NCBI GenBank assembly: GCA_037129895.1
Contig: JBAXUB010000003.1
Location: 2,699-66,698 of the forward strand
Origin: Candidatus Tayloriibacteriota bacterium
GTDB taxonomy: Bacteria > Patescibacteriota > Minisyncoccia > Phycocordibacterales > PALSA-1337
Length of the DNA stretch: 64,000 bases
Direction of reading: 5' to 3'
Shown: positions 7,034 through 49,742 of the stretch, one piece after another
Position numbering within the stretch: position 1 is the first letter of the stretch
Layout of the letters: each line of letters starts with the position of its first letter
The notes under the pieces: generated by a model
Databases searched by the model: none
Told to the model about the DNA's origin: nothing
What the model saw: the letters and a program-made list of their open reading frames with translations, nothing else
Translations under genes and position numbers: made by a program

Positions 7034-8062
7034 CTATTTTTTGCCTGCCATGACTATTCCCGCGCCGTCCCCAAGGCCCAATGCTGTTAGACCTTCCTGG
7101 GGAATGCCCCGGTATTCGTTCTCTTTTACTTCAATTGTTCGAGTCGTCTTTGGATCGACAGCTGCTGCTGCGGTCCTCGACGCCTCGTTTACGCCCATAT
7201 CAGGGTTCGCTTCCCTGAGTGCTCTGATCCCTTCGTTGATCATACCGATCGTCGACTTGGACGAGTAGATCGTCCTTGACTCTGGTGTGAGGTCAAAGTT
7301 TTCCAACGTTGGATTTTTGATCTCGCACCCGATCTGGTCTTCGAAAGCGGAGATATTTTCTTCGCCATCAAAAAGTGTTGAAACCCATTTGACTACTGAG
7401 CTCTTGTAATAGAGCAGAGTCTCAACCGAGTTCAATCCTGCCAGATCTGATAGTCGAGCAGCGACTAGCGCCAATATCCAGGCCCGAATCTCCGCGTTTT
7501 GATAACGCAGTGATTTGCTGAGCGCATCCGTGTCGCTCTTACGATTGTAGAGTATCAGGATGTTCGCAAACATCACGTATCCATCACGAGTGGTGAATGT
7601 CACCTGATTCTCGCTACCAAATCGGGTCGTTATGATTTCGTGCTTTTGGAAGTTGATTGGCTCTTCCTGAAGCCTAGAACTCCACATTGTGAAGTGGAAT
7701 CCTTGGAGGTAAACCAGGATCTTTCCCGGTCTGAAATAGTCCAGGTAGACCTTGGCTTCCCGAGCGTTCACTGTCGTCCACATCGCTGGGGTGTAGATGA
7801 TCACGAACGCTGCCACTCCGATCAGCGGAATTCCGATCGTCATCATCGACGATTTGTCGATGAATGATAGACCAATCGACAAGGCAACGAAAAGTATCAT
7901 TGCTGTCAATAGGTTGAGTATCAGCGATTCATAATCAAAGTTATTGATCACCGCTACCGCCAACGCTTTATCCGTGTTCACCCTGGCTCCCGGTTTCGGT
8001 GGGAGGGAGGTAATTTTCGGTCTCCGCAACGCGGGCGGAGCTTCTTTAATTTTCTTACTCAT
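7034..8062 (-). CDS. SPFH/band-7 (stomatin/HflK-like) membrane protein
   Basis: N-terminal TM helices are followed by the segment '...HEIITTRFGSENQVTFTTRDGYVMFANILILYNRKSDTDAL...', which is the SPFH pattern. Confidence 0.4.
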   Translation of the reverse strand: MSKKIKEAPPALRRPKITSLPPKPGARVNTDKALAVAVINNFDYESLILNLLTAMILFVALSIGLSFIDKSSMMTIGIPLIGVAAFVIIYTPAMWTTVNAREAKVYLDYFRPGKILVYLQGFHFTMWSSRLQEEPINFQKHEIITTRFGSENQVTFTTRDGYVMFANILILYNRKSDTDALSKSLRYQNAEIRAWILALVAARLSDLAGLNSVETLLYYKSSVVKWVSTLFDGEENISAFEDQIGCEIKNPTLENFDLTPESRTIYSSKSTIGMINEGIRALREANPDMGVNEASRTAAAAVDPKTTRTIEVKENEYRGIPQEGLTALGLGDGAGIVMAGKK

Positions 8063-8200
8063 AATTTCATTTCTTTCTGTCTTTGATCTTCAGCCATAAT
8101 TGTGGCCTCGGATCGGTTTGTCTATTATTCAGCTGTCAAACAGTATCTTTTGGACACTGGCAAGAGTCATCCGACCCTCGCAAACAGGCTTTTAAATCTG
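8063..8200. repeat. Promoter/5'UTR repeat, copy 1 (about 85% identical to 9435-9576)
   Basis: Direct comparison shows it contains TTGACA on the minus strand and the palindrome 'agccataattgtggcc'. It ends at the start codon of the 7034-8062 gene. Confidence 0.6.
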
Positions 8201-8317
8201 GTTCAATTGTAGCATAAAAAAAGGGCAAAGTCAAGGCAAATTGAGTATCGAAATAGGGCTATATAGCAAGTCATATTATTGGCTATTTTTGGTCATAAAT
8301 ATAAAGAAAACCCCTCA

Positions 8318-8352
8318 TAGACATTGCTGTCAGTGAGGGGTTTTTTGAAGGA
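8318..8352. terminator. Intrinsic terminator (bidirectional)
   Basis: 'cccctcatagacattgctgtcagtgagggg' plus a T-run lies downstream of the 8364-9434(-) gene. Confidence 0.5.
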
Positions 8353-8363
8353 ACTGTTCGGTG

Positions 8364-9434
8364 CTACCTGCACCGGCCACCACCACCGTGGTGGTATGTG
8401 GCAAACGGTAGTGGGGGACCGCCACGATATCCGCCGCCGTACGATGGGGCACAATAGCTGCCACTATAGTAGCTACCACCCCCGTATCCGACACTAATGA
8501 TCGGCCTGTACGTTTGATACACGTACGGCTGCTGGTAAACAACCGTCGGCGCTGTTCGATAGTAGTATGAGGACTGCTCAACCGGAGCAGGTTCCCGATA
8601 CTCCTGCACCTGTTTCTCAACAGGTTGCGCCGGCGGTGACCACGTTGAAGTGGTCTTCGTCGCACAAGTCGGCTGCCTCACTGTTACGGCCTGTGTGCTG
8701 ACAAGGGTGTTGCCCTTGTACACAGGCCCGTAGTTTACGGTTATGGAGCAGTTCGTGCTGCTCACAATGTTGAAGCAGTTCGACATGGCCATGGTATTGG
8801 CCACTGAAGAGCTCATCCCACTCTGACTCTGAGCGAGGCCAGCTCTGGCGCGAGCGATTTCGCCCTCGTAATCGCTGAGCTTTTTGCTCTCAGCGTTCAA
8901 GTCGAGCTGCTCTTTATGGGCAGCGTCGTACCCTTTTGTCAACTTCCTGTATTCTGCAGCTGTCGCTGCGGCTGTTGACGGCGCGTCCACGGTGGCCTTC
9001 TGGTCGCGGTGTGTCCACCACCACCAGAGACCGATGAGGCTGAGAATCGCCACGATTAACGTGGTAATCTTAAGCCACTTCCACTTGTCGCCCGAAGCGG
9101 GCGGCGTGGTGGTGACGTTTACTGTCGTCGATCCACCTGTACCACCGGAAGCTGCAGCTGCTGCAGCGGCGGCCGCGGCTGCTGCTTTAGCGGCGCTCCC
9201 TGCGCGCGGCTTCCGAGCCTTCTTGGGTGCGGCTGGCTGCGGCGGCGGAGTGACTGGTGGCGGCGTCCCCGTTGTTGGGGGAGTTGCCGTCTTCTTCGCC
9301 TTGGCAGTTTTAGGGGCGGCAGGTGCCGTACCCGAAGTTGCTGCTGACGCTGTTGTTGCTGCAGGTGCTGTATTTACAGAACCTGGATTTGCGGGCGGTT
9401 GCCCAACCGGCGTTTTTGTCGTTGCCATATTCAT
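8364..9434 (-). CDS. Low-complexity Pro/Ala/Thr-rich membrane protein with Gly/Tyr-rich C-terminus
   Basis: It contains the TM helix 'ITTLIVAILSLIGLWWWW' and a coiled-coil segment. GC is ~62%. The plus-strand ORF 8884-9471 is its antisense shadow. Confidence 0.5.
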   Translation of the reverse strand: MNMATTKTPVGQPPANPGSVNTAPAATTASAATSGTAPAAPKTAKAKKTATPPTTGTPPPVTPPPQPAAPKKARKPRAGSAAKAAAAAAAAAAAASGGTGGSTTVNVTTTPPASGDKWKWLKITTLIVAILSLIGLWWWWTHRDQKATVDAPSTAAATAAEYRKLTKGYDAAHKEQLDLNAESKKLSDYEGEIARARAGLAQSQSGMSSSVANTMAMSNCFNIVSSTNCSITVNYGPVYKGNTLVSTQAVTVRQPTCATKTTSTWSPPAQPVEKQVQEYREPAPVEQSSYYYRTAPTVVYQQPYVYQTYRPIISVGYGGGSYYSGSYCAPSYGGGYRGGPPLPFATYHHGGGGRCR

Positions 9435-9576
9435 ATTTCTTTTTCTTTCCGTCTTTGATCCTCGGCCATAATTATGGCCTCGGATCGGTTTCTATATTCA
9501 GCTGTCAAACAGTATCTTTTGGACACTGGCAAGAGTCATCCGACCCTTGCAAACAAGCTTCAAATTTCTGGTGGTA
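9435..9576. repeat. Promoter/5'UTR repeat, copy 2
   Basis: It contains TTGACA on the minus strand and the perfect 16-bp palindrome 'ggccataattatggcc' at 9464-9479. It ends at the start codon of the 8364-9434 gene. Confidence 0.6.
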
Positions 9577-9647
9577 TTATATCACAAAGGAGTAATTTGT
9601 CAAGGTAAACGTATTTCGGCAATGATCGGGTGAACATGAGTCAAATA

Positions 9648-9673
9648 GCGTTATACCATATATGGTATAACGC
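9648..9673. repeat. 26-bp perfect palindrome gcgttataccata|tatggtataacgc
   Basis: Read directly. It lies ~40 bp from the first tRNA-Leu 3'-end repeat. Confidence 0.6.
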
Positions 9674-9713
9674 CTATAAGCTATGTTGTGCGCCCCAGGA
9701 TAACATATTTGCG

Positions 9714-9731
9714 GTGCCGGGGAGAGGACTC
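9714..9731. repeat. Direct repeat of the tRNA-Leu 3' end (18 bp, gtgccggggagaggactc), copy distal to the tRNA
   Basis: It is identical to 10024-10041, which is the 3' terminal 17 nt of tRNA-Leu plus 1 nt. Confidence 0.6.
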
Positions 9732-9855
9732 TTTCCCTACGGGAACGGTACAGTCTTCGTATTTCTCCTCGTCTACGACTCGTAGAAATATACTCAGACT
9801 TTTCGAGTCTTTGGACGCGAACCAGTCAACTGGTTCGCTGGTGGTATGCATATCA

Positions 9856-9873
9856 GTGCCGGGGAGAGGACTC
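9856..9873. repeat. Direct repeat of the tRNA-Leu 3' end (18 bp), middle copy
   Basis: It is identical to 9714-9731 and 10024-10041. Confidence 0.6.
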
Positions 9874-10024
9874 CCCCGCGACTCTCGGCTGACCAGTCAG
9901 CCTCGGTCTGGGCACCGGCTCGCGGCTCGGTGCGCTCACCTCGCACGCTCCGCCGTTCTCGTCCTACCCCATGTCACAATGATGCTCCATTCGGACTGCA
10001 TTTAGCAGTCCTCGTGGATCATTG

Positions 10025-10106
10025 TGCCGGGGAGAGGACTCGAACCTCCATGAATTGCTTCGCGTGGTCCTAAGCCACGTGCGTCTACCAATTTCGCCAC
10101 CCCGGC
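10025..10106 (-). tRNA. tRNA-Leu (anticodon TAG), type II with long variable arm
   Basis: I folded it by hand. Acceptor GCCGGGG pairs with CCCCGGC, anticodon arm is CGTGG-CTTAGGA-CCACG, and T arm is GGAGG-TTCGAGT-CCTCT. Length is 82 nt. Confidence 0.8.
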
Positions 10107-10271
10107 GTAGATATAACATAGCATGTTTATGTGGGATTGACAAAATGGTATAAACAATGTTATAGTACACACGGCTAAGTTCTCTTACAATGTGATTTGA
10201 ACCAAGTGCCAAAAGTAAACAACCGGGCCTTTATGCCCACGGCTGAATAAGCCAAAAAAGAAAGGATAGTT

Positions 10272-11702
10272 ATGTTAAGTGAAAAATTCGTGCTGACGGT
10301 AAGTCGGCTAGTCATGCCGATCGGATTCGCTGTCGAAAATTTGGTCGCACGTATGCTACTCATGTGGTATGCGTTTGATAGGTTCGTCGGGGTAGATAAG
10401 GCCCCTATCATGTTCTCTCAGGGGGAAGTGATCGGAGTGGATGCTACGTTCGACGCAGATGGTGAGGTGCCTATCGGGTGCGGACAAGGAAGGTTCGGGA
10501 CCGAGCATCCGGCCATCTCGGTGGCCAAAGAGCTCGGAATCCAGGACAACGCGGAGTTGTTACCGCTACTAGGATTTCTGAAAAATGGGACAGGTAGTGA
10601 GTTGCGACTGCAAGTGCTGTTCAAGTCCGTTCGTCGAAAGGTGAACGGTGACCCGAAGACATGCATTCAGGTTATGAGCATCTTCATTGATGCCATAATC
10701 ATGAATGCCCGGTACAATCCGGTCGCATGTCAGAAGGAACTGTCGCTGGAAGAGGTCTTTCAAGGTCTCATCAAGCGCAAGAAGTTCACTGACAAACGAG
10801 CCTGCGCTCATCTGCAAAAGCAGATCGAACTCAGTCTTGCGAACAGTAAAGATGTGACTGAGTTAAATCACGTCCTTATGGCACTGTTCCGTCGTCGTGA
10901 CAAGACTGTGACGACAGCGGATGTGCCTCTCTACAAGGAGGCTGACATCCTCGAGTGGATGGAGTTCGTCCTCACAGCCTATTACCAGCAGCAGATCGAC
11001 TTTGGCAAGGCGCTGGAGGAGGTTCGAGATTTGGAACCTGTCATGGTTCCTACACTGATCGGTAAGAGCAGATTCAAGATGAAGCTCATCACCGTATCGA
11101 GTGAAAATGATCAGGTGGCAAAAGCTGCCAGATCGCTCGGTGCGGACATAGTCTTGCACAGAGAGCCAATGTCTCTACGTCGTCACATAAGTTTTGGTCC
11201 TGTCCGTGGGTTATCTAGCCAGAACCTGGCGAAAATGATCGAGTGGATGGAGGTGCCGAAAAAAATGAAAAGTCGAGTAAAGTGGGCTGATCTGGGAAGC
11301 TTCGACAAGAGTCGCGGGATCACATGGTGGCACGTGGACCGCAACGGAAATCTGCATAATGGTACCAAGTACCGTCCGCAGCCGGAATCGATGATCGCAG
11401 ATTCTTCGATCGTTGATGCGATCCAGCACGCCTTCCATTTCGAGGAACTGAAGTTCTGGTGCAATCATCCGGATCGCAAGATCAGGATCTCGGCCAGAAC
11501 GGAAGGGAAGAAACAGCTCGCCCTTCCTCAGCCCAACGGAAACAATGGGAACGGGAATGGACATCACGAGGTAGCCGGGATCAATGCGGTGGCAACTGCA
11601 TTCGACAAAGCCTTGGAATCCAAGGCAGTCAGGGACGTTGTCAAAGACGTCAAGCCCAAGCGCAGGGTTAGTAAAGGGGACAAGGTTGTCAGCAGGGCAT
11701 AG
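10272..11702 (+). CDS. Hypothetical protein (GC-rich island; no recognisable domain)
   Basis: A 476-aa ORF at ~52% GC. I see no tyrosine-recombinase R..HxxR..Y signature. Confidence 0.45.
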   Translation: MLSEKFVLTVSRLVMPIGFAVENLVARMLLMWYAFDRFVGVDKAPIMFSQGEVIGVDATFDADGEVPIGCGQGRFGTEHPAISVAKELGIQDNAELLPLLGFLKNGTGSELRLQVLFKSVRRKVNGDPKTCIQVMSIFIDAIIMNARYNPVACQKELSLEEVFQGLIKRKKFTDKRACAHLQKQIELSLANSKDVTELNHVLMALFRRRDKTVTTADVPLYKEADILEWMEFVLTAYYQQQIDFGKALEEVRDLEPVMVPTLIGKSRFKMKLITVSSENDQVAKAARSLGADIVLHREPMSLRRHISFGPVRGLSSQNLAKMIEWMEVPKKMKSRVKWADLGSFDKSRGITWWHVDRNGNLHNGTKYRPQPESMIADSSIVDAIQHAFHFEELKFWCNHPDRKIRISARTEGKKQLALPQPNGNNGNGNGHHEVAGINAVATAFDKALESKAVRDVVKDVKPKRRVSKGDKVVSRA

Positions 11703-35951: not shown

Positions 35952-36305
35952 CAAAAAGCACCACGTTTCGGTGGTGCGTTTTGTTGGTGTCTGGTTACGG
36001 TTTAGAAACCGTGAGGGCGCGAACGCCCCAAACACCATTGAAAGTATACGCCAATTGGTATATGTGTCAAGAAGATGTAATAACTTGTTGCGGGGGCCGG
36101 AATCGCACCGACAATTTTCAGGTTATGAGCCTGACGGGTTACTGTTACCCTACCCCGCGATATTTTTCTAAGATTGGTCACCAACCTCACTTATCGGTCT
36201 ATTGTGCCATAAAAGGGGATTGGTTGCAAATGGTATTGTCAATGGGGTTGATTTATCGTCTTTTTTTCGCTATTGTATCTTGGTTGGGCAGGTGGGGTCA
36301 TGTTC

Positions 36306-36331
36306 GTTTGAAAATATATGTCGGCGTAGCT
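36306..36331. repeat. 26-bp direct repeat (gtttgaaaatatatgtcggcgtagct), copy A, followed by a degenerate tRNA-like 5' fragment
   Basis: It is identical to 36380-36405, which spans the upstream region and first 12 nt of tRNA-Met. Confidence 0.55.
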
Positions 36332-36393
36332 GTTGTAGTTTAGCCGGCACCAGGAGTATTGTAAGGTATGATGATATTAGTTTGAAAATATAT

Positions 36394-36467
36394 GTCGGCG
36401 TAGCTCAGGTAGTTAGAGCATAGCATTCATAAAGCTAAGGTCGAAGGTGCAAGTCCTTCCGCCGACA
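36394..36467 (+). tRNA. tRNA-Met (anticodon CAT; elongator or Ile-lysidine type)
   Basis: Acceptor GTCGGCG pairs with CGCCGAC, anticodon loop is TTCATAA, and T arm is GAAGG-TGCAAGT-CCTTC. Length is 74 nt. Confidence 0.75.
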
Positions 36468-36525
36468 CAATTCTGCATTATTAGTCCGTTGTTGTTTTAT
36501 AAAAACATTATAATATCTTTTTGAT

Positions 36526-37206
36526 ATGCCAATATTGAAATATGTAAATAAAGATTTCTTCAAATTATGGACTCCAACTATGGCTTATGTGCTGGGGTTC
36601 TTTGCTGCGGATGGGTATATGACATTGAATAAAAGGGGAGCGTACTTTTGGAATATTCAGATCACTGAGCGGGAGTTACTTCAAATGATCAAAGTGGTGA
36701 TCAATTCTCATCATAAGATAAGTGTGCGAAAAGGAAATGGTAGAGAGAAAGAGTTATATAGGTTGCAAATAGGAAGTAAAGAGATGTTTAACGATTTACA
36801 GAATCTCGGCTTTATTCCCGGAAAGACTTATAGTATGGCAGTGCCTAGTGTGCCAGCTAAGTTCTTTAGGGATTTTGTCAGGGGATATTTTGATGGTGAT
36901 GGAAATGTCTGGGTCGGGTATACTCATCGAAACAGGTGCACTAGACTTCTTACCCTATCTTCCAGCTTTACCTCATGTTCGAGGGCTTTTCTTGATGAAT
37001 TGAGATGTCGATTGAGACTATTTGGCCTAATTTCTGGTTCTGTATATACAGGAAAGGGTAAATTCTTTCGTTTGAAATATAGTGTACGTAGCTCTATGAA
37101 ATTATACGATTTCATGTATAATAGTCCACATCTGATACCAAGCAGGGATTTGTTCCTAGATCGAAAGAAGTCAGTCTTTGAAAGGTATCTGAAAATGCGC
37201 CCGTAG
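36526..37206 (+). CDS. LAGLIDADG homing endonuclease (double-motif, freestanding)
   Basis: It carries two LAGLIDADG motifs, 'LGFFAADGYM' and 'RGYFDGDGNVW'. The 3' end overlaps tRNA-Asp by 10 nt. Confidence 0.8.
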   Translation: MPILKYVNKDFFKLWTPTMAYVLGFFAADGYMTLNKRGAYFWNIQITERELLQMIKVVINSHHKISVRKGNGREKELYRLQIGSKEMFNDLQNLGFIPGKTYSMAVPSVPAKFFRDFVRGYFDGDGNVWVGYTHRNRCTRLLTLSSSFTSCSRAFLDELRCRLRLFGLISGSVYTGKGKFFRLKYSVRSSMKLYDFMYNSPHLIPSRDLFLDRKKSVFERYLKMRP

Positions 37207-37270
37207 TTTAGCTGGCTAAAACAATCCCCTGTCACGGGATAGACCGTGGGTTCGAGTCCCATCGGGCGCG
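37197..37270 (+). tRNA. tRNA-Asp (anticodon GTC)
   Basis: Acceptor GCGCCCG pairs with CGGGCGC, anticodon arm is ATCCC-CTGTCAC-GGGAT, and T arm is GTGGG-TTCGAGT-CCCAT. Confidence 0.85.
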
Positions 37271-37362
37271 CATAGATTTGAGATCAATAGGTAAGCCACA
37301 GAAAGTTCACGGGTCTAGAGGACTTGAGCTGTGGTATAATTTTTGTATAGAATTTGGATTAT
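37271..37362 (+). repeat. ~90-bp direct repeat copy 1 carrying an extended -10 promoter (TGGTATAAT at 37332-37340)
   Basis: It is near-identical to 42820-42917. It sits immediately 3' of tRNA-Asp and ends at the glycosyltransferase ATG. Confidence 0.65.
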
Positions 37363-38556
37363 ATGAATATCTGCTATATTTATCCGGGGTATCCGCCAGA
37401 AAATCACTCAGGTGGCGTGGGTACTTTTATTGAGGAATTAGTTAAAACAATTTCTAAGTATGGGACGCATAAGATTGATATCATCTCTCGAAGTGACAAA
37501 TATTTCGATAGCATTGAAAATCTTTCGACTAATGTCACATTATATCGCTTAGGGGAAACCCCTTTAGCGGAAAACAGTCCTGTCCTGTTGTTTCGTAATG
37601 AAGGTTTTCTCCGCCATTATGAAAGAGTGTTAGAGGTTGTAAAAATGATTAATGGCAAAAATCCGATAGATGTAATTGAAGTTGCAGATTGGGGAGCTGA
37701 AGGATTTTTGGTATTGAAGCAATTTTTGGATATCACACTTGTGCGATGTCATACGCCAGCCTTTGTTTCGGAGAGCTATAATCCGAGTAGTAGATCATAT
37801 CTTTCGGACAACATAAAATCATCTGAAAAGAGTATGCTGTCAATCGCTAAACACATTGTTTGTCCCAGTAGAAGTCTCATAGATGAGATTGATAAGCGGG
37901 TACATATTGGTTGTGTACCAAAAATTGAGTTATATCCCCTTGATCTTGGTGATATTAGGACAAAGCAGGACTACGCAATAACATCGAATGAAATAAGATT
38001 GCTTAGCGTTGGTAGAATTGAAGAGCGAAAAGGACAGGATATCATATACCAGGCGTGTCAGCTTATTTCAGAACAAAACAAATATAATATTAGTCTGGAC
38101 CTTATTGGAGCAGATACATATGTCGGAATCAACATGCTATTTAGTAAGTACTTCATTGAGAAGTTAGTAGAAAAGCCGACGTTCAAATTTAGGTTGCTTG
38201 GTGAAATGTCTAGAAAAAAGGTTTTAGAAATATATCAATATTACGATATCTATATTGGTGCATCGAGATTCGATAATTACCCATATACACTTCTTGAAGC
38301 AATGGGCGCAGGTTTGCCGGTGATAGGGAACAACAATTCTGGGATCAGTGAAATAATGATTAAAAACATAAACGGTTTAACGTTTGCTGGTAACTCGACA
38401 GAGCTTGCGAATTCGATTAATACACTTATTCAAGATCAAAAATTACGTGCGTACATAGGAGAGAACGCGAGAAGTTTTATTGAGACAAAATTGACACCTG
38501 GTGTGGTTTATCGTAATGTAATTAGAACGTATCAAAATATATGCAAAAAAGAATAA
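37363..38556 (+). CDS. Glycosyltransferase family 4 (GT-B)
   Basis: It has the N-terminal 'GGVGTFIEEL' and the C-terminal 'E.FG..LLEAMGAGLPVIG'. Start was taken at ATG 37363; the tracker's 37354 is a TTG. Confidence 0.7.
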   Translation: MNICYIYPGYPPENHSGGVGTFIEELVKTISKYGTHKIDIISRSDKYFDSIENLSTNVTLYRLGETPLAENSPVLLFRNEGFLRHYERVLEVVKMINGKNPIDVIEVADWGAEGFLVLKQFLDITLVRCHTPAFVSESYNPSSRSYLSDNIKSSEKSMLSIAKHIVCPSRSLIDEIDKRVHIGCVPKIELYPLDLGDIRTKQDYAITSNEIRLLSVGRIEERKGQDIIYQACQLISEQNKYNISLDLIGADTYVGINMLFSKYFIEKLVEKPTFKFRLLGEMSRKKVLEIYQYYDIYIGASRFDNYPYTLLEAMGAGLPVIGNNNSGISEIMIKNINGLTFAGNSTELANSINTLIQDQKLRAYIGENARSFIETKLTPGVVYRNVIRTYQNICKKE

Positions 38557-40193
38557 TTTCTCACAATAAAAACCTTGGAAAAAGACTAACTATGCAGTCA
38601 GATTTGCTGTTTTCAATTCACCATTTATTTCACAAAAAAGGTTTTAAAGAGATTAATACTCCAATATTAAGTTTTCCCACAAAGGAATATGGTGACGGTG
38701 AATTTGTTGTCGTGTCCAAGCTCCAGCCTGGAAAGTTCTATTCTCTTCCGCATTCTCCCCAATTGTATAAACAATATTTATTGGCTCGTTTTCCAGAACT
38801 GAAAGCATACTATCAGATAGCGTCAAATTTTCGACCTGAAATTGGTGATAATACACACGCACAAGAATTTCATCAAATAGATTTCGAAATTGCAAATTTA
38901 TCTCTGGACGATGTGCGACGAACTATTGAGCAAATTTGTAGTAAAGCTTTTTCACTTATTGACATTAGGCCGACCTATACCGTTATGAGATTTGAAGACT
39001 CTGTGTGTCTTTATGGCTCCGATTCGCCTGATCTTAGATACAGCGGTGGGGAATTTAGAAACGACGGAAAGGAAGTATATTTCGAAATACCAATTAGAGA
39101 TGTCCTAGATTTGCAGAAGTTGAAATCGCAGTTACGTGCAAGAACAGGTGTTAGTATGAGAATCGGACCAAAGTCATTTGTATTTGCGTCTCAAAAGGGT
39201 AACTTATATATACTAGGAGATTTCCGAAATAGGCTGATCAAAAATTATGTATTACGTCTACATTCTAAATGGTCATTCGTCTGGCTGATCGATTTACCTC
39301 TATTCAAGCGCGATGGCAATGGGCAAATTTCCACCTTTCATCATCCGCAAATGTCACCAATGAGTCATTATGCTTTTTGGAAAGCCGCAAAATCAAAAGA
39401 TATTAACGAAGTACTTTCTTTGAGGGGAAATGGATGTGAGCTCATAGTCAACGGAATGGAGCTTGGAGGAGGTAATGTTCGTAATAACGATTTAAAGATA
39501 CAAAAGGAAATTCTTAACATTTGTGGAGTAAGTGACACATCGCTTAGATCTACGTTTAAACCATTACTTGATATGCTCAGATCGCATCCGAATTACAAAA
39601 GCTCTGGAGCAGCTGTAGGCCTTGATCGTCTTATGATGTTATTAACAAAGAGCGATTCTCTTTCAGATAACCGAGCATTTCCACAAGATAATAATGGCAC
39701 GGAGTATTTCGGTGGCCCCTCAAACGTTTCTATGTCAGATTTACAGGAATTAGGTTTAGATTATGAACACCCGATAATAACCCAGTCACGGCAAACAGCA
39801 ATACGACTCGTTGAGGCAAATAACAATTTTATTCACGATCGAAAACATATACAGAATGTTGAGCAAAATGCAGTCGCGATCGCTATCAATGAAGGAGTTT
39901 TACCAGACGAAATACTCATTTTAAGACTAGCGGCGCATTGGCATGATGTCGGACGAAATGATTGGTTGCCACGTGAAATTGAACCCCACGCAGAAATTTC
40001 TATGAAAGCATTTAGAGAATGGGCGAATACGATGGGGATGCCAAATTCAGTAATTACTCCTGTTGAGTTATTGATAAAGGAACATGATGAACTATCGAAG
40101 ATCGAGCATCCTGATAAATTATTAAAAATCTTGCAAGACGGTGATAGGTTGGATGTTATTAATGTTGAGAGAGTGCAGAGGATATTGGCGTAG
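38541..40193 (+). CDS. Class IIb (AspRS-like) aminoacyl-tRNA-synthetase catalytic domain without anticodon-binding domain, fused to a C-terminal HD phosphohydrolase domain
   Basis: Motif 1 is 'FKEINTPIL'. Motif 2 is 'LPHSPQLYKQYLL...FRPEIGDNTHAQEFHQIDFEIA'. Motif 3 is 'ELGGGNVRNNDLKIQ...AAVGLDRLMMLLT...AFPQ'. The C-terminus carries 'AAHWHDVGR...EHD...DGDRLD'. Confidence 0.6.
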   Translation: MQKRIISHNKNLGKRLTMQSDLLFSIHHLFHKKGFKEINTPILSFPTKEYGDGEFVVVSKLQPGKFYSLPHSPQLYKQYLLARFPELKAYYQIASNFRPEIGDNTHAQEFHQIDFEIANLSLDDVRRTIEQICSKAFSLIDIRPTYTVMRFEDSVCLYGSDSPDLRYSGGEFRNDGKEVYFEIPIRDVLDLQKLKSQLRARTGVSMRIGPKSFVFASQKGNLYILGDFRNRLIKNYVLRLHSKWSFVWLIDLPLFKRDGNGQISTFHHPQMSPMSHYAFWKAAKSKDINEVLSLRGNGCELIVNGMELGGGNVRNNDLKIQKEILNICGVSDTSLRSTFKPLLDMLRSHPNYKSSGAAVGLDRLMMLLTKSDSLSDNRAFPQDNNGTEYFGGPSNVSMSDLQELGLDYEHPIITQSRQTAIRLVEANNNFIHDRKHIQNVEQNAVAIAINEGVLPDEILILRLAAHWHDVGRNDWLPREIEPHAEISMKAFREWANTMGMPNSVITPVELLIKEHDELSKIEHPDKLLKILQDGDRLDVINVERVQRILA

Positions 40194-40199
40194 TATAGT

Positions 40200-41039
40200 A
40201 TGGGCAATCAGATCGGCGAGTACAATTATTATCAGTCTATAGCATTTTGGGTTAAAATGAACAAAACCATGAACAATATTTTACAGACAAAATCAGCGAA
40301 AAAAATGTATTTAGATCGCCAATCGGAATTTAACGATATTATAGAGTTGTTACGCGTGTACAGGATCGACACTAAAAGAACAATAATTGCACTTGGTGGT
40401 GCGGAATCAATCACAGGCATATATAACTCTTTGGATAGGTCGGTACTCGGTTCTGTTGCTTCCGACAAAATCAAAATGCTTTATGTACCTATTGGCGTTT
40501 TCGGAAATGCTGATATTGTCAAAACAGTTGATGAATATGTAACGATTGTAAAGAGGTATTATCAAGGTTTGGGTAGTGAGGTTGATTTTAAGTATGTAAG
40601 CCCTCATGATTCTGAGGATGAGATTATTTCAAAAATTAAGGAGGCAGGCATAGTTTATTTAGCAGGAGGTGATACAAAATATTTAATCGAGAAGCTAAGT
40701 GCACCCAAAATAGAAGAGGCACTTAAAGAATCTTATGAAAAAGGAACAATTCTGATTGGAAACAGTGCTGGTATATTGTGTCTTCTTCAAAATCCAGTTT
40801 CATTTTCCTATGGTGATGAGCCAGAATACATGAAAGGTCTTGGATTACTAAAAAAATATTGCATCCTGGTTCACTATTCACCAGAGAAGGATGCACATAT
40901 AAAAAAAATACAGAAGCAAGTTAAGGATGATCAAATAGTACTGCTACCTGAATCTGGTGCCGCAATATTTATAAATGAGGAGCTCGTAGCTTCTACGGAA
41001 AAAAATAGCGTGTTACCCACTGCTGGTAACACGCGCTAG
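40200..41039 (+). CDS. Peptidase S51 family (dipeptidase E/cyanophycinase-like)
   Basis: 'IVYLAGGDTKYLIEKL' is followed by the nucleophile motif 'GNSAGILCL', then His in 'VHYSPE'. Confidence 0.5.
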   Translation: MGNQIGEYNYYQSIAFWVKMNKTMNNILQTKSAKKMYLDRQSEFNDIIELLRVYRIDTKRTIIALGGAESITGIYNSLDRSVLGSVASDKIKMLYVPIGVFGNADIVKTVDEYVTIVKRYYQGLGSEVDFKYVSPHDSEDEIISKIKEAGIVYLAGGDTKYLIEKLSAPKIEEALKESYEKGTILIGNSAGILCLLQNPVSFSYGDEPEYMKGLGLLKKYCILVHYSPEKDAHIKKIQKQVKDDQIVLLPESGAAIFINEELVASTEKNSVLPTAGNTR

Positions 41040-41061
41040 TTGATTGGCTTGGGACTCGCTA

Positions 41062-42552
41062 TTAGTCAGTGTAGTGTCCGATCGATGAGCTCAATGTATC
41101 AGGATTTACAGTGATCCTACCAAGGACTTGCTGTCTATCATTTTCGGTGGGTTCTTGGAATGATCTATTGCCATGAACCTGGGCCGTAATTTCAGCAAGG
41201 TCGTCCACGAACTTTTGATAAAACTGGCGCGTATACTCACATGCACGCTTATCACAGTTCATCATGTTTCCTGATTGTACCCACGATTCGTAGGCACAGG
41301 CATTCCCACATATCCCTATGGCTTTACAACCTTGACATGTATCGATGTAGACAGGTGAGCGTCGCTGAAGTGAATCTAGGATGTTTGGTTTCATCGAACA
41401 ACAATTAGCTGGTTCGATAGTCATACCACTAGCTAGTGTGTTAAGAGCTAGGAATGATTTACATGGACCGATGTTGCCTCGGGCATCAATGTTAATCGTT
41501 GTACCAGCGGCGGCTCCGCAATCGTGGTATCTGAACCTTCTGGTAACAAATGGATGGACTCTTCTGTACACGAGTTCAAAGAATAGTCCTGTGTTACGAA
41601 ACACACGGAAAGCATCATATGTTGCTTGGACGAAGTCAATAGGCGTGATCAGGAATGGGAAGTCCCCTTGACTCTTTGTTGGAGGCTTCATGTAGTTCAC
41701 TCCGATGCTTACTGGCCGATATTCTTCCAACATGGTTGAGATTTCACGTTTAAGATGGCAGACGTTGTGTTTTCCAATCACCATCGAAAGACCGAGTTCT
41801 ATACCAAAGCTGTTGAGTAGGCGGATGCCCATGTCAACTTGTTTGAATGATCCACGACCAGTGTGGTCTTTGCGCAGTATATCGTGGATGTCCTGTTGGC
41901 CATCAATCGATACTATCACCTTGATGTTATGGTGAGATAGATATTTCGCCCGTTCCGCGTTGATCAATATTCCGTTTGTGCCAAGCGCGATGAAGTATCT
42001 TTCACCAGCGCGTTTGAGCGATTCGACGAGAACGATTATTTGTTTTACACGTTCCCAAGCTATTAAAGGTTCCCCACCTGAAATATGTATGACCTTAGGC
42101 GTCGATGGGACGGAACCATTAAAGAAGAGTTCGATTACGTGTTTAAGATCCTCTGGTGATGCGGCCCGTTTAGTTACTGTAGTGATATTGTGCATAACCT
42201 TACAATAATCACAGCTCAGGTTGCAAACGTCTGTAAGGAGGATGCGTAGAAGCCTGTACCCACTATTACGGGTGCTCGTTTCTGGAGTTATGAAGTCAGT
42301 TAACTGTTCGTTTTCAGATAAAGCTACAAACGAGCCTCTGTTCAATGTCTCCACAAGATGCTTCGCTTCAGTGGGACAATATAATTGTTCCGCAAATGCG
42401 GAGACTTCTTCTTGTGTCCTATCACTAGTTATGAAATTTGCAAGTCTAATCAATCTGTTATCGCCGAATATTTGATTCAGCGAAACCGATTGGGATAAAA
42501 CCTGCAGTCCATTGCTAGCAATCATGGACTTGCTGAATTTTGATAATCTCAT
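41062..42552 (-). CDS. Radical SAM/SPASM-domain peptide maturase with N-terminal RRE (PqqD-like) domain
   Basis: The rSAM motif is CNLSCDYC (Cx3Cx2C). The C-terminal Cys-rich SPASM region reads 'CQGCKAIGICGNACAYE'. The ~110-aa N-terminal extension is PqqD/RRE-like. Confidence 0.75.
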   Translation of the reverse strand: MRLSKFSKSMIASNGLQVLSQSVSLNQIFGDNRLIRLANFITSDRTQEEVSAFAEQLYCPTEAKHLVETLNRGSFVALSENEQLTDFITPETSTRNSGYRLLRILLTDVCNLSCDYCKVMHNITTVTKRAASPEDLKHVIELFFNGSVPSTPKVIHISGGEPLIAWERVKQIIVLVESLKRAGERYFIALGTNGILINAERAKYLSHHNIKVIVSIDGQQDIHDILRKDHTGRGSFKQVDMGIRLLNSFGIELGLSMVIGKHNVCHLKREISTMLEEYRPVSIGVNYMKPPTKSQGDFPFLITPIDFVQATYDAFRVFRNTGLFFELVYRRVHPFVTRRFRYHDCGAAAGTTINIDARGNIGPCKSFLALNTLASGMTIEPANCCSMKPNILDSLQRRSPVYIDTCQGCKAIGICGNACAYESWVQSGNMMNCDKRACEYTRQFYQKFVDDLAEITAQVHGNRSFQEPTENDRQQVLGRITVNPDTLSSSIGHYTD

Positions 42553-42708
42553 TCAGTTTCCTTTTGTTGTAAATGATCAACTATGTTGAGAAATCTTGGG
42601 GATAAATTTGGTACCGTTTAGGTACGTTTCTATGGAAATATATATCACAAAATAGTAGAAATGGCAAGCTGTTAGCAAATCTTATCTTATCTGGAACGTT
42701 TGTGGTTT

Positions 42709-42776
42709 GTTAAACAATAGTGCACAACCTGGTGGGGTAATTGAATGTTGGAATACTTTTTGTCGTTTTACCCATA
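42709..42776 (-). CDS. Candidate 21-aa precursor peptide MGKTTKSIPTFNYPTRLCTIV (unannotated small ORF)
   Basis: I translated it by hand. It has an AGGAA RBS 6 nt upstream, sits ~155 nt upstream of the maturase on the same strand, and has a single Cys near the C-terminus. Confidence 0.2.
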
Positions 42777-42819
42777 TTCTTCCTTATCCCAGTTCCAACA
42801 TCCTCCTACCGCGTCCGCG

Positions 42820-42917
42820 CATAGATTTGAGGTCAATAGTAAGCCACAGAAAGTATGTGGATCTAGAGGACTTGAGCTGTGGTATAATTTTTGTATAGAA
42901 TTTTAATATACGAGTTT
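42820..42917 (+). repeat. ~90-bp direct repeat copy 2 with extended -10 promoter (TGGTATAAT at 42890-42898)
   Basis: It is near-identical to 37271-37362 and ends at ATG 42918. Confidence 0.65.
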
Positions 42918-43685
42918 ATGCCAACAGAACAAATGAATTTCGATCAATTGATATCAAAACTGTCCAATAATCAGAATGTGGACGCGCTACTTCTGTGTGG
43001 TTCAACTGCTACACAAACGCGTACTACTAGTAGTGATTATGATCTTGTTGTTATTGTCAAAGATAAGCCTGAAAAGCTAGTGTCGATGTTTGCAACGATC
43101 GGTAACGTACCAGCTGATATTTTTTTCTTTACAATATTGGAAATAGAAACTATTTTGAAGAACATGAGTGTGAAAGATGGTGCGGAGATGTGGCTATTGA
43201 ATTGGCTCGAAACTGGCAAGATTTCCTTCGATAAGTCTGGGACCTTAACGAAACTGCAAGAAACGAGAAGGAGTGTACAGAAGCCAGACAATGTTTCTTT
43301 GGCTAAGTCCTACGAATACAAGATCAATTATAATCTTCTGGCTAATACACGGTATTTTGAATCTAAAGATGAGCTTTATCATGCGGCACTAGAGATCCGT
43401 CTTTTATATTCCATTGTCGAAGCACTGGTCGGATATTTTACTATGCGTGCCATAAATTGGGAAGGAGAGAAGAGTGCTATCCTATATCTAAGAAAGAACG
43501 ACCCAGCATATCTGAAAGTATTTGAGTCAGTCTGTAGAGAGACATCTCTTTTTAGTAAGTTCGCTTCTTACAAGAAATTAGTTGAGGAGTCATTTTATGG
43601 TAAATACAAGAAGTGGGATAATGATATTGCTGTTAGTATGGATGGTGACTTCGGTGAATTCTGGAGGGGTCTATTGAATATGTAA
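42918..43685 (+). CDS. Nucleotidyltransferase-fold protein (Pol-beta superfamily, ANT/Lnu-like)
   Basis: It carries 'LLCGSTATQ...SDYDLVVIV', which is the GS...D.D motif. Confidence 0.5.
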   Translation: MPTEQMNFDQLISKLSNNQNVDALLLCGSTATQTRTTSSDYDLVVIVKDKPEKLVSMFATIGNVPADIFFFTILEIETILKNMSVKDGAEMWLLNWLETGKISFDKSGTLTKLQETRRSVQKPDNVSLAKSYEYKINYNLLANTRYFESKDELYHAALEIRLLYSIVEALVGYFTMRAINWEGEKSAILYLRKNDPAYLKVFESVCRETSLFSKFASYKKLVEESFYGKYKKWDNDIAVSMDGDFGEFWRGLLNM

Positions 43686-43774
43686 TCCTGTTGACTTCAT
43701 GGTATTTTTTGATAATATAGAGGTACAAGTGGCTTCGGCCTAACCCTCGAAAGGGGGAGAAAAGAGAAAAACCG

Positions 43775-44368
43775 TCAAAATAATTTTTTGACGGTTTTTC
43801 TTAAATTTTGAAATATATCGATCTCTAGGAAACCAATTTTTTCAACCAAGCGCCTTGTATCTATTGCGCGAACCTGAGACAAGATGGCAGAAGCGTGTTT
43901 TCCTTGAATTTCTCCTATAGGCACACGTAAATAATGTTTACGAAGAGAAGTGGTGAGAGGTATAACCATACAGATATTGGCCCCAAATCCACGGATGATC
44001 AAAACTGGTCTTAAGAAGTCCTCTCCATTACCATCTTGCTCCGAGCCTATGTTTATACCTAGTCTGCACCACCAAACTTCCCGTACAGTATAGAGGCGCG
44101 GTTTTTCTATATGTACAAGTTTCTTCTTGAAATTCCAACTGTCAAATTCTTTATTAATAGAAACTGGGTCTTCGAATGAGAACCTGATACCGTATTCTAC
44201 GCCAAATTCACTATTTCGAATATGATTTTCAGCTTCTTTTGCGGCTGTATATAGCAGGTCAAATGTACCAAGGACACTGATTTCTCCATTGGTATCAAAA
44301 TCCATTTCAGAAACATAATATTTTCCTGTAGGCGTTTCTTCTATTTGAATGTAATTATTTGTACTCAT
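43775..44368 (-). CDS. MazF/PemK-family toxin domain with ~100-aa N-terminal extension
   Basis: The C-terminal half reads '...RPVLIIRGF...ICMVIPLTTS...AILSQVRAIDTRRLVEKIGFL', a MazF signature. No separate antitoxin ORF was seen upstream. Confidence 0.55.
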   Translation of the reverse strand: MSTNNYIQIEETPTGKYYVSEMDFDTNGEISVLGTFDLLYTAAKEAENHIRNSEFGVEYGIRFSFEDPVSINKEFDSWNFKKKLVHIEKPRLYTVREVWWCRLGINIGSEQDGNGEDFLRPVLIIRGFGANICMVIPLTTSLRKHYLRVPIGEIQGKHASAILSQVRAIDTRRLVEKIGFLEIDIFQNLRKTVKKLF

Positions 44369-48305: not shown

Positions 48306-49742
48306 TTACCCGGTGCTTGTGTCAAGCTCCTGTGACTTTAGGTGCTCGATTATCAATGCGTCTGTTATCTCTCGATAGAATTCGCACTGGCTTGTAAAGA
48401 TCTTGTTGTCTTGGAAAGACCCACTTTTTGAAGAGAATTCTCGAGTAACTTCGCATTGGCCAGCACAGGCGCACTCGATTTGGCATCCTATACAGACCTT
48501 GTCGGTCCCAGGGTATCTCGCTTTCACAAGTCGTGAAAGATTGTTGTTACTCTCAAATAGCTTATCGAAAGTATTTACATGACCAATTCGACTGGTTGTA
48601 TGACTGCAGACTTTAATACTTCCGTCAGTGTTGAATTCAAGCGACTTTCCTTGGACGGCTGCACAGAATGTATGCGTCTCTGTGAGGAGGTTTCCGCTAG
48701 TAAGATTCCTGTAGGCACTGTCCCATGTACCGAAGAAGTTTATGCCAATTGCGTCAGCGTACTTTTTTAGGCACATAAGCTTACTTACTTTTTCCTTTGT
48801 CGGCACATTGTGGAGTCCTATCAGATCGTAATCAAACGCGATAGACGTCATCTGTCGATTGGCTGCCCAGTCGATTATGTCTGTTCCAATAGAATCAAAG
48901 TTGTTCTGCGCCACAGTTATACTAAATCCGTCCAAGGGGTACCCAATATGATCTAGAAGGTCGATATTTTTTACAATTGCGTCAAATGTTCCTCGTCCTT
49001 CGTTTGTTATGCGTATAGCATTGTTGGCGATTTTAGTGCCGTCTAGAGATGTAGCGATGCGAACCTTAAATTTCTTCAGGGTATGTGCTATGTCGGACGT
49101 TAATAACGTAAGGTTTGTATTAATAGTGAATTCAAACGAGATGTCCGAAATAGAGTCACAGTAGTGTAGTATTTTAGCAATAGTTTGCCAGTTGAATAAT
49201 GGTTCTGCATTGCCGAAATGAATCTTGCAGTGATTTCGGTTGTGATCTCGTAGTAGTGCAATAAATCCGTCTATACATATTTTTGCGGTTTCCCATGTCA
49301 TGTTGAGTCCCGGTAATGGTCGCCTATACTCAGTAATTTTTTCTTGCGTCTCCGAATCCTTCTGGAAATGGATACAATGTTTGCAGGCTAGGTTGCACCA
49401 GTCACTAATAGCTAAACCCATTCTATCTACGGTCCGTCCACTAGCCAGTTCAAGTAAGTATTTTGATCGATTTTGAACTAGTATAAGTCGTTCGTCTTGG
49501 CCAGGGATGATGAGGAAAGATAATTGCTTGAAGTTTTCAAGTAGTTCTCTAGGGTCGTCATCGCACTGTTCGACAATAGCAATTAAAGTTTGTGGCTTCA
49601 AAAACAAGTTGAGAAAATTAATTCCTTCTGCATTCAGGATTCTGGGATTTCCGAACAGTTTGTGGTAAACCAGGGTTGAATTGGAAGACGGCTCTTTAAC
49701 ATAGCGTAAGAATGGAGATAGTTGATATTTTGAATCTTGCAT
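48306..49742 (-). CDS. Radical SAM/SPASM-domain peptide maturase with N-terminal RRE (PqqD-like) domain
   Basis: The rSAM motif is CNLACKHC (Cx3Cx2C), and the SPASM region reads 'CIGCQIECACAGQCE'. The N-terminal stretch 'ILNAEGINFLNLF...TLIAIVEQ...DPRELLENFKQLSFLI' is PqqD/RRE-like. Confidence 0.75.
   Translation of the reverse strand: MQDSKYQLSPFLRYVKEPSSNSTLVYHKLFGNPRILNAEGINFLNLFLKPQTLIAIVEQCDDDPRELLENFKQLSFLIIPGQDERLILVQNRSKYLLELASGRTVDRMGLAISDWCNLACKHCIHFQKDSETQEKITEYRRPLPGLNMTWETAKICIDGFIALLRDHNRNHCKIHFGNAEPLFNWQTIAKILHYCDSISDISFEFTINTNLTLLTSDIAHTLKKFKVRIATSLDGTKIANNAIRITNEGRGTFDAIVKNIDLLDHIGYPLDGFSITVAQNNFDSIGTDIIDWAANRQMTSIAFDYDLIGLHNVPTKEKVSKLMCLKKYADAIGINFFGTWDSAYRNLTSGNLLTETHTFCAAVQGKSLEFNTDGSIKVCSHTTSRIGHVNTFDKLFESNNNLSRLVKARYPGTDKVCIGCQIECACAGQCEVTREFSSKSGSFQDNKIFTSQCEFYREITDALIIEHLKSQELDTSTG

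Follow-up and report, generated by a model that had tools for sequence, protein, structure and literature searches.

Paralogues of the aminoacyl-tRNA synthetases (aaRSs) that lack tRNA recognition, among them AsnA, EpmA, MshC, GluQRS and the amino acid:carrier-protein ligases, have each brought a novel type of aminoacyl transfer to light. Such ligases, like SPASM maturases, S51 peptidases and GT4 enzymes, are kinds of component that are known already. Here we analyse a segment (37271-42917) of a 64-kb stretch of contig JBAXUB010000003.1 (assembly GCA_037129895.1); the whole stretch is called the window, and coordinates are positions in it unless another locus is named. The segment encodes a GT4 glycosyltransferase, a catalytic core derived from bacterial-type AspRS, HD and S51 hydrolase domains, and a radical SAM/SPASM enzyme. 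It is one copy of a rare, conserved and evolutionarily mobile module of the Candidate Phyla Radiation (CPR; Patescibacteria), the host in this case being a Candidatus Taylorbacteria genome. What is new is the architecture in which the AspRS core, HD and S51 domains are combined, and the gene set as a whole, and there is a real chance that they carry new chemistry. A preliminary description of the segment, made from its sequence, had found the arrangement unfamiliar, and no curated family in Pfam, NCBIfam or PADLOC, beyond generic domains, was found to match the architecture or the gene set; a full-text literature search returned no description of the gene set either. A role in anti-phage defence was considered and rejected, PADLOC giving only a generic radical SAM (pVip) similarity.

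Homologue look-ups established that the radical SAM/SPASM enzyme, the GT4 enzyme, the anticodon-less AspRS core and the S51 domain recur together in 10 distinct CPR loci, the window included. Their flanks are unrelated. The GT4 gene is kept in every cassette, and the HD domain is usually, not always, part of the set. The loci are arranged as follows.

Window: GT4, aaRS-HD and S51 split by a TAG, radical SAM gene on the opposite strand; tRNA-Asp upstream
L001: radical SAM, GT4 and an aaRS-HD-S51 fusion, all on one strand; L32, NusB and RNase III on one side, Sua5 on the other
L002/3: GT4, aaRS-HD-S51 fusion, radical SAM gene on the opposite strand; PaaK-like, ThiF and nitroreductase genes
L004/5/6: GT4, aaRS-HD-S51 fusion, radical SAM gene on the opposite strand
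L007: radical SAM, GT4 and an aaRS-S51 fusion without HD; AsnRS-like and AspRS genes
L008, L009: radical SAM, GT4, unfused aaRS and a short S51 encoded on the other strand; L008 also has AspRS
L015/16/20 (Magasanikbacteria): radical SAM, GT4 and an 802-aa fusion (L015, 12593-15001); NAD-dependent sugar epimerase/dehydratase downstream, in the operon
L017/18 (Gottesmanbacteria): radical SAM, GT4, aaRS and an HD-S51 fusion; amidohydrolase and methyltransferase upstream, divergent AspRS-like gene
L101/102: every gene stands alone, the S51 being divergent; ArgRS

The same domains are thus found fused in differing combinations: aaRS-HD-S51 in chains of 792-836 aa, aaRS-S51 in protein P0011, HD-S51 in L017 and in protein P0095, and GT4-HD-S51 in protein P0090. 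It follows that the enzymes work together, and variable fusion of so small a set of domains is strong evidence that one substrate or pathway is common to them all. The association of an Asp-type ligase with an S51 enzyme, which had been proposed from the window, is accordingly well founded, the two being a single polypeptide in relatives and the gene set being conserved in the 10 loci. The family is a small one. An exhaustive hidden Markov model (HMM) search of 1.84 billion representatives, in which P0090 and P0095 surfaced, gave six tight-family clusters above 700 bits and then a drop to canonical AspRS, while a genome scan returned two Magasanikbacteria loci only. A metagenome scan with the family alignment found no family member, the scan being swamped by canonical AspRS because the SPQLYKQ pattern is common to both. 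A word-indexed search with P0095 returned that protein only, and tblastn for carriage on plasmids or phages gave canonical aspS only, at no more than 32% identity.

The features of the window on which the following account draws are these.

37197-37271 (ARAGORN) or 37197-37270 (Rfam, 67 bits), forward strand: tRNA-Asp(GTC), the upstream neighbour, outside the conserved cassette
37267-37355, forward strand: direct repeat copy 1, holding an extended -10 (TGGTATAAT, 37332-37340) and the 5' leader of the GT4 operon
37363-38556, forward strand: GT4 (GT-B) glycosyltransferase, 397 aa, with the ATG start chosen by the gene caller; the open reading frame (ORF) runs from a TTG at 37354
38541-39704, forward strand: class IIb aaRS catalytic core (tRNA-synt_2) derived from bacterial-type AspRS, without an OB domain
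39819-40190, forward strand: HD phosphohydrolase catalytic core of the YedJ/Lin1889/YpgQ type, motifs H..HD..H..D
40191-40193, forward strand: in-frame TAG by which the ancestral aaRS-HD-S51 gene is split; Q, C or Y in relatives
40200-41039, forward strand: second piece of the split gene, 279 aa, the first ~50 aa being the C-terminal helices of the HD fold
40386-40982, forward strand: S51 Ser-His hydrolase domain (Peptidase_S51)
41008-41034, reverse strand: G+C-rich hairpin and T-run, terminator-like by consensus scan only, between the convergent S51 and radical SAM genes
41062-42552, reverse strand: radical SAM/SPASM enzyme, 496 aa
41062-41106, reverse strand: its conserved C-terminal tail TLSxSIGHxT, with L487, G492 and H493 invariant
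41239-41520, reverse strand: its seven-Cys SPASM region
42202-42225, reverse strand: its CX3CX2C radical SAM motif
42328-42552, reverse strand: its N-terminal winged helix-turn-helix, like a RiPP recognition element (RRE) at fold level
42553-42815: unique intergenic segment 5' of the radical SAM gene, with no conserved small ORF
42816-42903, forward strand: direct repeat copy 2, with an identical promoter and leader role for a Pol-beta nucleotidyltransferase gene at 42918-43685

The gene at 38541-40193 encodes a product of 550 aa, in which the preliminary description had seen an AspRS-type class IIb core of ~380 aa with motifs 1-3 but no anticodon-binding domain, and this view is upheld. The tRNA-synt_2 domain of Pfam covers residues 8-383 (E 5e-54), class II motifs 1-3 and the complete AspRS binding site for Asp and ATP are retained, and S193, Q195, K198, R217, D233, E235, H448, H449, E482, R489 and R537 (E. 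coli numbering) are invariant or nearly so across the family. Alignment to E. coli AspRS begins at about residue 133, and the anticodon-binding OB domain and the hinge are therefore missing; Pfam tRNA_anti-codon, which represents the OB domain, has no match in the protein. The GAD insertion, ~115 aa in AspRS, is replaced by a subdomain of ~55 aa. In class II synthetases the motif-2 loop touches the acceptor end of the tRNA, and in this family the loop is an invariant RPExGDxxHxQEF in place of the AspRS RDEDLRADRQPEF. The AspRS equivalog NF001750 reaches 234 bits in two stretches, against a cut-off of 443, while EpmA (44.5 bits, cut-off 286.9) and AsnA (46.2, cut-off 309) score far lower. An AlphaFold model, with a mean predicted local distance difference test (pLDDT) of 79.9, has E. 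coli AspRS (1c0a) as its best match in the PDB (E 1.7e-27, 470 columns). Bacterial-type AspRS structures take the top 18 places, well above LysRS and archaeal AspRS, and AsnA and EpmA are absent from the top 50, so that the predicted fold is closest to bacterial AspRS and not to AsnA or EpmA. It was also considered that the gene might be a fragment of a canonical AspRS. This was rejected, as no OB domain is encoded upstream or in frame, every family member starts at the hinge motif, and the DNA upstream is the GT4 gene, which overlaps the aaRS-like gene by 16 nt. The protein is named by NCBI as "amino acid--tRNA ligase-related protein"; from its sequence, we infer a tRNA-independent aspartyl ligase.

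The C-terminal HD domain that had been assigned to this product stands at the level of the family profile, which matches PDB 3b57 at E 1.4e-14 and YpgQ (5dqv) at 3e-6, but the single window protein scores 20.3 bits with Pfam HD, below the cut-off of 22. The motifs HWHDVGR and DGDRLD are present and Pfam HD was found in six of six members. YpgQ is a nucleotide pyrophosphohydrolase. In the family alignment several members lack the HD domain or have a degenerate one, and it is dispensable. The S51 domain is clear (Peptidase_S51, E 1.1e-21, 78 bits against a gathering threshold of 23.9): its serine (GxSAG; here GNSAG) and histidine (VH) are invariant across the family and align with those of its best solved relative, the cyanophycinase-like exopeptidase 6nqc. 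Both hydrolase domains, S51 and HD, are plausible catalysts. It had been described as a separate peptidase gene, and this part of the claim does not hold. The ORFs at 38541-40193 and 40200-41039 share a frame, are separated by the TAG and two further codons, and give products of 550 and 279 aa that are collinear with the single-chain aaRS-HD-S51 homologues; by this comparison they are one tri-domain gene interrupted by a single TAG.

The radical SAM/SPASM assignment is well supported, both by the domain match (Radical_SAM, E 1.9e-15) and by the cysteines: C110, C114 and C117, together with the seven of the SPASM region (C345, C364, C406, C409, C415, C419 and C438), are invariant in 65 sequences. 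In the AlphaFold model (pLDDT 91.8) residues 7-72 form a beta3-alpha3 N-terminal domain (pLDDT ~97), and the best PDB match is CteB (E 1.2e-20, 467 columns), followed by TigE, anSME, ChlB and SuiB. The domain and the CteB match support the N-terminal RRE of the preliminary description at fold level, but not at the level of a family profile, since Pfam PqqD has no match in the protein. Among NCBIfam models the best similarities are to the peptide maturases PapB, FibroRumin, DynA and QhpD, and the score falls short of every maturase equivalog cut-off (PapB 120 bits, against 340). The C-terminal SIGH tail is modelled with fairly high confidence though it is coil, and could serve as ligand to an auxiliary cluster or, within the molecule, mimic a peptide.

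The clade of radical SAM enzymes with this invariant tail extends to actinomycetes. One actinomycete homologue (GCA_000744785.1) is 44% identical and has the same tail and the N-terminal RRE motif. It is encoded in a cluster (locus L014, 6310-16673) with genes for a Gfo/Idh/MocA oxidoreductase, xylose-isomerase-like TIM-barrel proteins, a carbamoyltransferase, a 517-aa nucleotidyltransferase-like protein, an epimerase and a SerRS, without GT4, aaRS-like core or S51. This may be an aminoacyl-nucleoside or cyclitol gene cluster in which the aaRS is a resistance or a biosynthetic gene. No close homologue of the actinomycete enzyme was found on plasmids.

The GT4 enzyme was correctly recognised from the outset (Glycos_transf_1, E 3.7e-28, 98.6 bits against 26.4; Glyco_transf_4, 31.1 against 28.5). 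It reaches the cut-off of no NCBIfam functional equivalog, and its best solved relatives by sequence are BshA and MshA, with weak scores. Overlap of the GT4 and aaRS genes is also seen in relatives.

A precursor peptide was sought by six-frame reading upstream of the radical SAM gene, by all-against-all BLASTP of intergenic ORFs of at least 20 aa, and among ORFs of 7-70 aa preceded by a Shine-Dalgarno sequence. No small ORF of at least 20 aa was conserved between loci in nine of the 10 (L101 was not included), no Shine-Dalgarno-preceded ORF of 7-70 aa was common to all 10, and none was shared even among the window, L002 and L004, in which the maturases are ~62% identical and the gene order is the same. 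The modified-peptide pathway first suggested for the segment, that of a ribosomally synthesized and post-translationally modified peptide (RiPP), thus found no support in a conserved small ORF near the cassette at the loci searched. A precursor gene in cis appears to be missing, which is compatible with a precursor encoded in trans. The intergenic segment at 42553-42815 presumably carries the promoter of the radical SAM gene. Rfam identified tRNAs only, with no riboswitch or other RNA element.

The reading that we prefer, though tentatively, is of a self-contained pathway leading from universal metabolites (Asp, ATP, a nucleoside diphosphate sugar and S-adenosylmethionine) to an aspartylated glycoconjugate; more broadly, we read the product of the cassette as an aspartylated glycoconjugate or peptide made without tRNA. 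The AspRS-like core would convert Asp and ATP to aspartyl-adenylate and pass the aspartyl group, with no tRNA involved, to an acceptor, at an amine or a hydroxyl; the GT4 enzyme would either build this acceptor or decorate it with a sugar. This transfer would follow the logic of MshA/MshC, BshA/BshC and EpmA. The coupled HD and S51 domains could provide an intervening or later hydrolysis, such as removal of a phosphate or nucleotide, or cleavage, trimming or proofreading of the aspartyl amide, and the radical SAM/SPASM enzyme could then tailor the product by radical chemistry, for example by a cross-link or an oxidation. A pathway of this kind is favoured because the cassette moves without a precursor gene, because the HD domain is of a nucleotide type, because a sugar epimerase joins the operon in one lineage, and because the order GT4-HD-S51 in P0090 mirrors the glycosyltransferase, phosphatase and amidase of mycothiol synthesis, which are followed by the aaRS-like ligase. 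Sugar chemistry is found near relatives both in the epimerase/dehydratase of the L015 operon and in the sugar/cyclitol-type cluster of the actinomycete homologue.

Several observations weigh against an aspartylated glycoconjugate. Chief among them is the RRE on the SPASM enzyme, a hallmark of the ribosomal-peptide maturases CteB, SuiB and TigE. The GT4 enzyme is generic, EpsE-type models scoring above BshA and MshA; the S51 enzymes known to us are Asp-specific exo- or dipeptidases and not deacetylases or transferases; and since several members have no HD domain, or a degenerate one, an essential step cannot rest on it. The window copy, with a TAG inside its tri-domain gene, may be impaired, and acceptor and product are identified purely by inference. 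The RRE argues for a peptide substrate, and it is therefore nearly as likely, if still doubtful, that all four enzymes tailor a ribosomal peptide or protein, bound by the RRE and encoded elsewhere or too short or variable to detect. The SPASM enzyme would cross-link it, GT4 would glycosylate it, the AspRS-like core would aspartylate it in the manner of EpmA or of PEARL enzymes, and S51 would trim or release an Asp-containing product. The match to CteB, TigE and SuiB over nearly the full length of the RRE, radical SAM and SPASM regions, the similarities to PapB and other peptide maturases, the peptidase nature of S51 and the additional amide hydrolases beside some cassettes (M20 in L101, an HExxH protein in L002, Amidohydro_2 in L017) all suit a scaffold peptide. 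It is harder to reconcile with the failure to find a conserved small ORF in or around the loci, even between maturases so similar, with the movement of the cassette between unrelated contexts without a precursor, with the scores below every maturase equivalog cut-off, and with a YpgQ-type HD domain and a GT4-HD-S51 fusion that would be unusual in RiPP pathways. A distinctly unlikely variant is a new route to a peptide-like or aminoacyl product with neither ribosomal precursor nor nonribosomal peptide synthetase, in which an aspartyl conjugate or oligomer would be assembled on a glycoside made by GT4, through the AspRS-derived adenylating core and the S51 acyl-enzyme domain fused to it, and would then be recognised and cross-linked by the RRE-SPASM enzyme; the product could be a mimic of Asp-AMP or Asp-tRNA directed at AspRS, which would explain the AspRS and tRNA-Asp genes beside several cassettes.

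Full-length aaRS genes do adjoin several cassettes (L007, 5397-8052; L008, 161-1465; L017, 187-1506; L101, 8498-10288), and together with the tRNA-Asp of the window they are suggestive of a link to the Asp/Asn decoding system, through either an inhibitor with an immunity copy or the modification of a macromolecule; neighbours of the Asp/Asn kind occur in only four of the 10 loci (L007, L008, L017 and, through its tRNA-Asp, the window). In the inhibitor version, which we consider improbable, the product would be an aspartyl-adenylate or aspartyl-nucleoside mimic that blocks AspRS, and the adjacent AspRS gene a copy for self-immunity. Albomycin (SerRS), microcin C (AspRS) and the peptidyl-nucleoside antibiotics offer precedents, and the combination of nucleotide hydrolase, glycosyltransferase, radical SAM enzyme, amino-acid ligase and peptidase parallels blasticidin-type pathways. 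This version draws on the non-discriminating AspRS, above the NCBIfam equivalog cut-off, in both L007 and L008, on the AsnRS-like gene of L007 and the divergent AspRS-like gene of L017, on the SerRS and carbamoyltransferase beside the actinomycete homologue, and on the relationship of the HD domain to the nucleotide pyrophosphohydrolase YpgQ. Yet AspRS adjacency is confined to three of the 10 loci, L007 and L008 may share ancestry, L101 has ArgRS instead, and the RRE is left unexplained. Even less probable is modification of an Asp- or Asn-decoding macromolecule, for example wobble-nucleoside hypermodification of tRNAs with a GUN anticodon or an EF-P-type modification of a protein. In tRNA-Asp, queuosine is the target of GluQRS, an aaRS paralogue lacking the anticodon domain, and in animals it is mannosylated by an enzyme of the GT4 family. 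The cassette has the enzyme classes of the known queuosine and EF-P modifications, a universal substrate would account for a cassette without a precursor working after transfer, and there is the adjacency to tRNA-Asp here and to non-discriminating AspRS and AsnRS elsewhere. The radical SAM enzyme, however, belongs to the peptide-maturase SPASM clade and not to the QueE, EpmB or MiaB types, the module is rare and patchy, tRNA-Asp is adjacent in the window only, and roles for S51 and HD are not accounted for.

The state and history of the window copy also allow for alternatives. It is conceivable, although unlikely, that the cassette is decaying in this genome and that the TAG is a nonsense mutation inactivating the S51, and perhaps the HD, part of the tri-domain enzyme. 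A single TAG stands in place of Q, C or Y in an otherwise collinear gene and cuts inside the HD-family fold, whose C-terminal helices are encoded in the next ORF. Recoding of TAG was also considered and rejected: it is an ordinary stop in the window, terminating 17 of 60 ORFs, and is therefore not recoded. Against decay, neither piece is damaged otherwise, termination-reinitiation is plausible from an ATG 6 nt past the stop, S51 or HD-S51 is naturally a separate protein in other members, and the alignment to several solved homologues already ends where the cut is made, at the end of the HD catalytic core. As to history, the preliminary description had the segment begin at the 3' end of tRNA-Asp, bracketed by near-identical direct repeats of ~90 bp that each carry an extended -10 promoter. 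All of this was confirmed: the 89-column alignment of the repeats has 82 identities, 6 mismatches and 1 indel (92%, above the 80% that it had set as a limit), TGTGGTATAAT is present in both copies, and the repeat occurs twice in the whole window, where shuffled sequences lead one to expect none. Exactly four enzyme ORFs lie between the copies. An integrative mobile element directed at the tRNA-Asp 3' end, for which the 89-nt repeats would be att sites, is nevertheless a reading to which we give little credence. In its favour are the exact flanking of the four genes, the start of repeat 1 in the last nucleotides of the tRNA, the cassette context that differs from genome to genome, and the rearranged tRNA cluster alongside. 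But no integrase, transposase or relaxase was found between the repeats (ORF list and Pfam), and repeat 1 shares just 4-5 nt with the tRNA, the remainder being the extended -10 promoter and leader. The repeats do not duplicate the 3' part of the tRNA, as those of a tRNA island would, and this is therefore not a classical tRNA-targeted island. The G+C content of the segment is not distinct, and no empty site was recovered, exact-protein look-ups giving the same population only. A Logan contig of 5566 bp (37326-42891) was considered as a circular form and rejected, because a k=31 graph must break at the identical core of the repeat, 42 nt long, and the contig ends exactly there; it is thus no evidence for a circle. 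At the other cassette loci there are neither flanking repeats nor an adjoining tRNA-Asp, so that the repeat-bounded, tRNA-proximal layout is a feature of this genome alone and not of the cassette. We read the 89-nt repeats as a local duplication of a promoter-bearing intergenic segment, probably the footprint of the cassette recombining into the spacer between tRNA-Asp and the nucleotidyltransferase gene.

Some further observations concern the neighbourhood of the window copy and of its relatives. The tRNA cluster at 36087-37271 holds tRNA-Met on the reverse strand and tRNA-Met and tRNA-Asp on the forward strand; the 5' region of a tRNA-Met is partially duplicated (36290-36340 and 36364-36414, 51 nt, 82% identical), and a free-standing LAGLIDADG endonuclease ORF (36526-37206) overlaps the start of tRNA-Asp with its 3' end. 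The Pol-beta nucleotidyltransferase after repeat 2 is outside the conserved gene set. This MntA-like protein, with weak PADLOC PDC-S09 matches, and a convergently encoded PemK/MazF-like protein, whose N-terminal extension is long, occupy 42918-44368 and look like a toxin-antitoxin-type pair using the duplicated promoter of the cassette. A second radical SAM gene (48306-49742, reverse strand, 478 aa) lies ~6 kb downstream. In L002 a PaaK/F390-synthetase-like adenylating enzyme (TSGSTGEP) and ThiF-family and nitroreductase-fold proteins adjoin the cassette (7209-11008), a trio reminiscent of peptide-modifying systems, and a 237-aa protein with an HExxH motif is encoded upstream of GT4. Downstream of the Gottesmanbacteria cassette, L017 8500-9700 is G+C-rich and ORF-poor, with a 43-nt direct repeat (9242, 9375) and no match in Rfam; this may be an undescribed structured RNA or a degenerate element.

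If the core is a ligase as proposed, it would be the first family of non-tRNA aaRS paralogues derived from bacterial-type AspRS, and its fusions to S51, HD and GT4 provide natural "Rosetta-stone" evidence on its partners. An RRE-bearing SPASM enzyme without a precursor gene is also a puzzle for RiPP genome mining, and such loci may be mislabelled where a tool classes them as "ranthipeptide" or "RRE-containing". CPR bacteria have a minimal metabolism and live on other cells, and a conserved, horizontally shuffled tailoring pathway in these organisms is a candidate source of an interaction molecule or of an envelope modification. The central claim is that Asp-AMP is formed without tRNA charging, and as the enzymes are small, soluble and separable it is directly testable in vitro.

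Comparison with described systems helps to place the module. With the S51 family, represented by the aspartyl dipeptidase PepE and by cyanophycinase, it shares the Pfam domain, the GxSAG serine and the histidine, but it scores below the PepE (33 against 156) and cyanophycinase (31 against 127) equivalog cut-offs and is fused to HD, aaRS-like or GT4 domains. The ranthipeptide and sactipeptide maturases CteB, SuiB, TigE and PapB have the same order of RRE, radical SAM and seven-Cys SPASM regions and include the best structural matches. The cassette enzyme differs from them in having no cognate precursor gene at the searched loci, in falling below their equivalog cut-offs, in its own invariant SIGH tail, and in being always paired with an aaRS-like ligase, GT4 and S51 or, in actinomycetes, with sugar enzymes and a SerRS. 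Mycothiol and bacillithiol synthesis (the GT4 enzymes MshA and BshA, a phosphatase, a deacetylase, and the aaRS-like MshC or BshC) has in common with the cassette a GT4 enzyme, hydrolysis and an aaRS-derived ligase. However, the amino acid of the cassette would be Asp and not Cys, an LmbE-type deacetylase is lacking and deacetylation is not known for S51, the resemblance in GT4 is weak and generic, and the radical SAM/SPASM enzyme has no counterpart there. The principle of forming an adenylate and then using an acceptor other than tRNA, or other than its 3' end, is shared with AsnA and the archaeal AsnRS-like asparagine synthetase, EpmA (PoxA/GenX), MshC and GluQRS. The window core belongs to none of these families, given its scores with AsnA (46.2 against 309) and EpmA (44.5 against 286.9) and a fold ranking with bacterial AspRS far above them, and fusion to HD or S51, or pairing with GT4 and a SPASM enzyme, occurs in none of these ligases. 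Its closest relative by both sequence and fold is AspS itself (E. coli, 1c0a; Thermus thermophilus, 1efw), with which it shares the class IIb core, motifs 1-3 and all contacts to Asp and ATP. From AspS it has diverged by the absence of the OB domain and hinge, by a GAD region of only ~55 aa and by a score of 234 bits against the equivalog cut-off of 443, while it has a motif-2 loop of its own and is joined to HD and S51.

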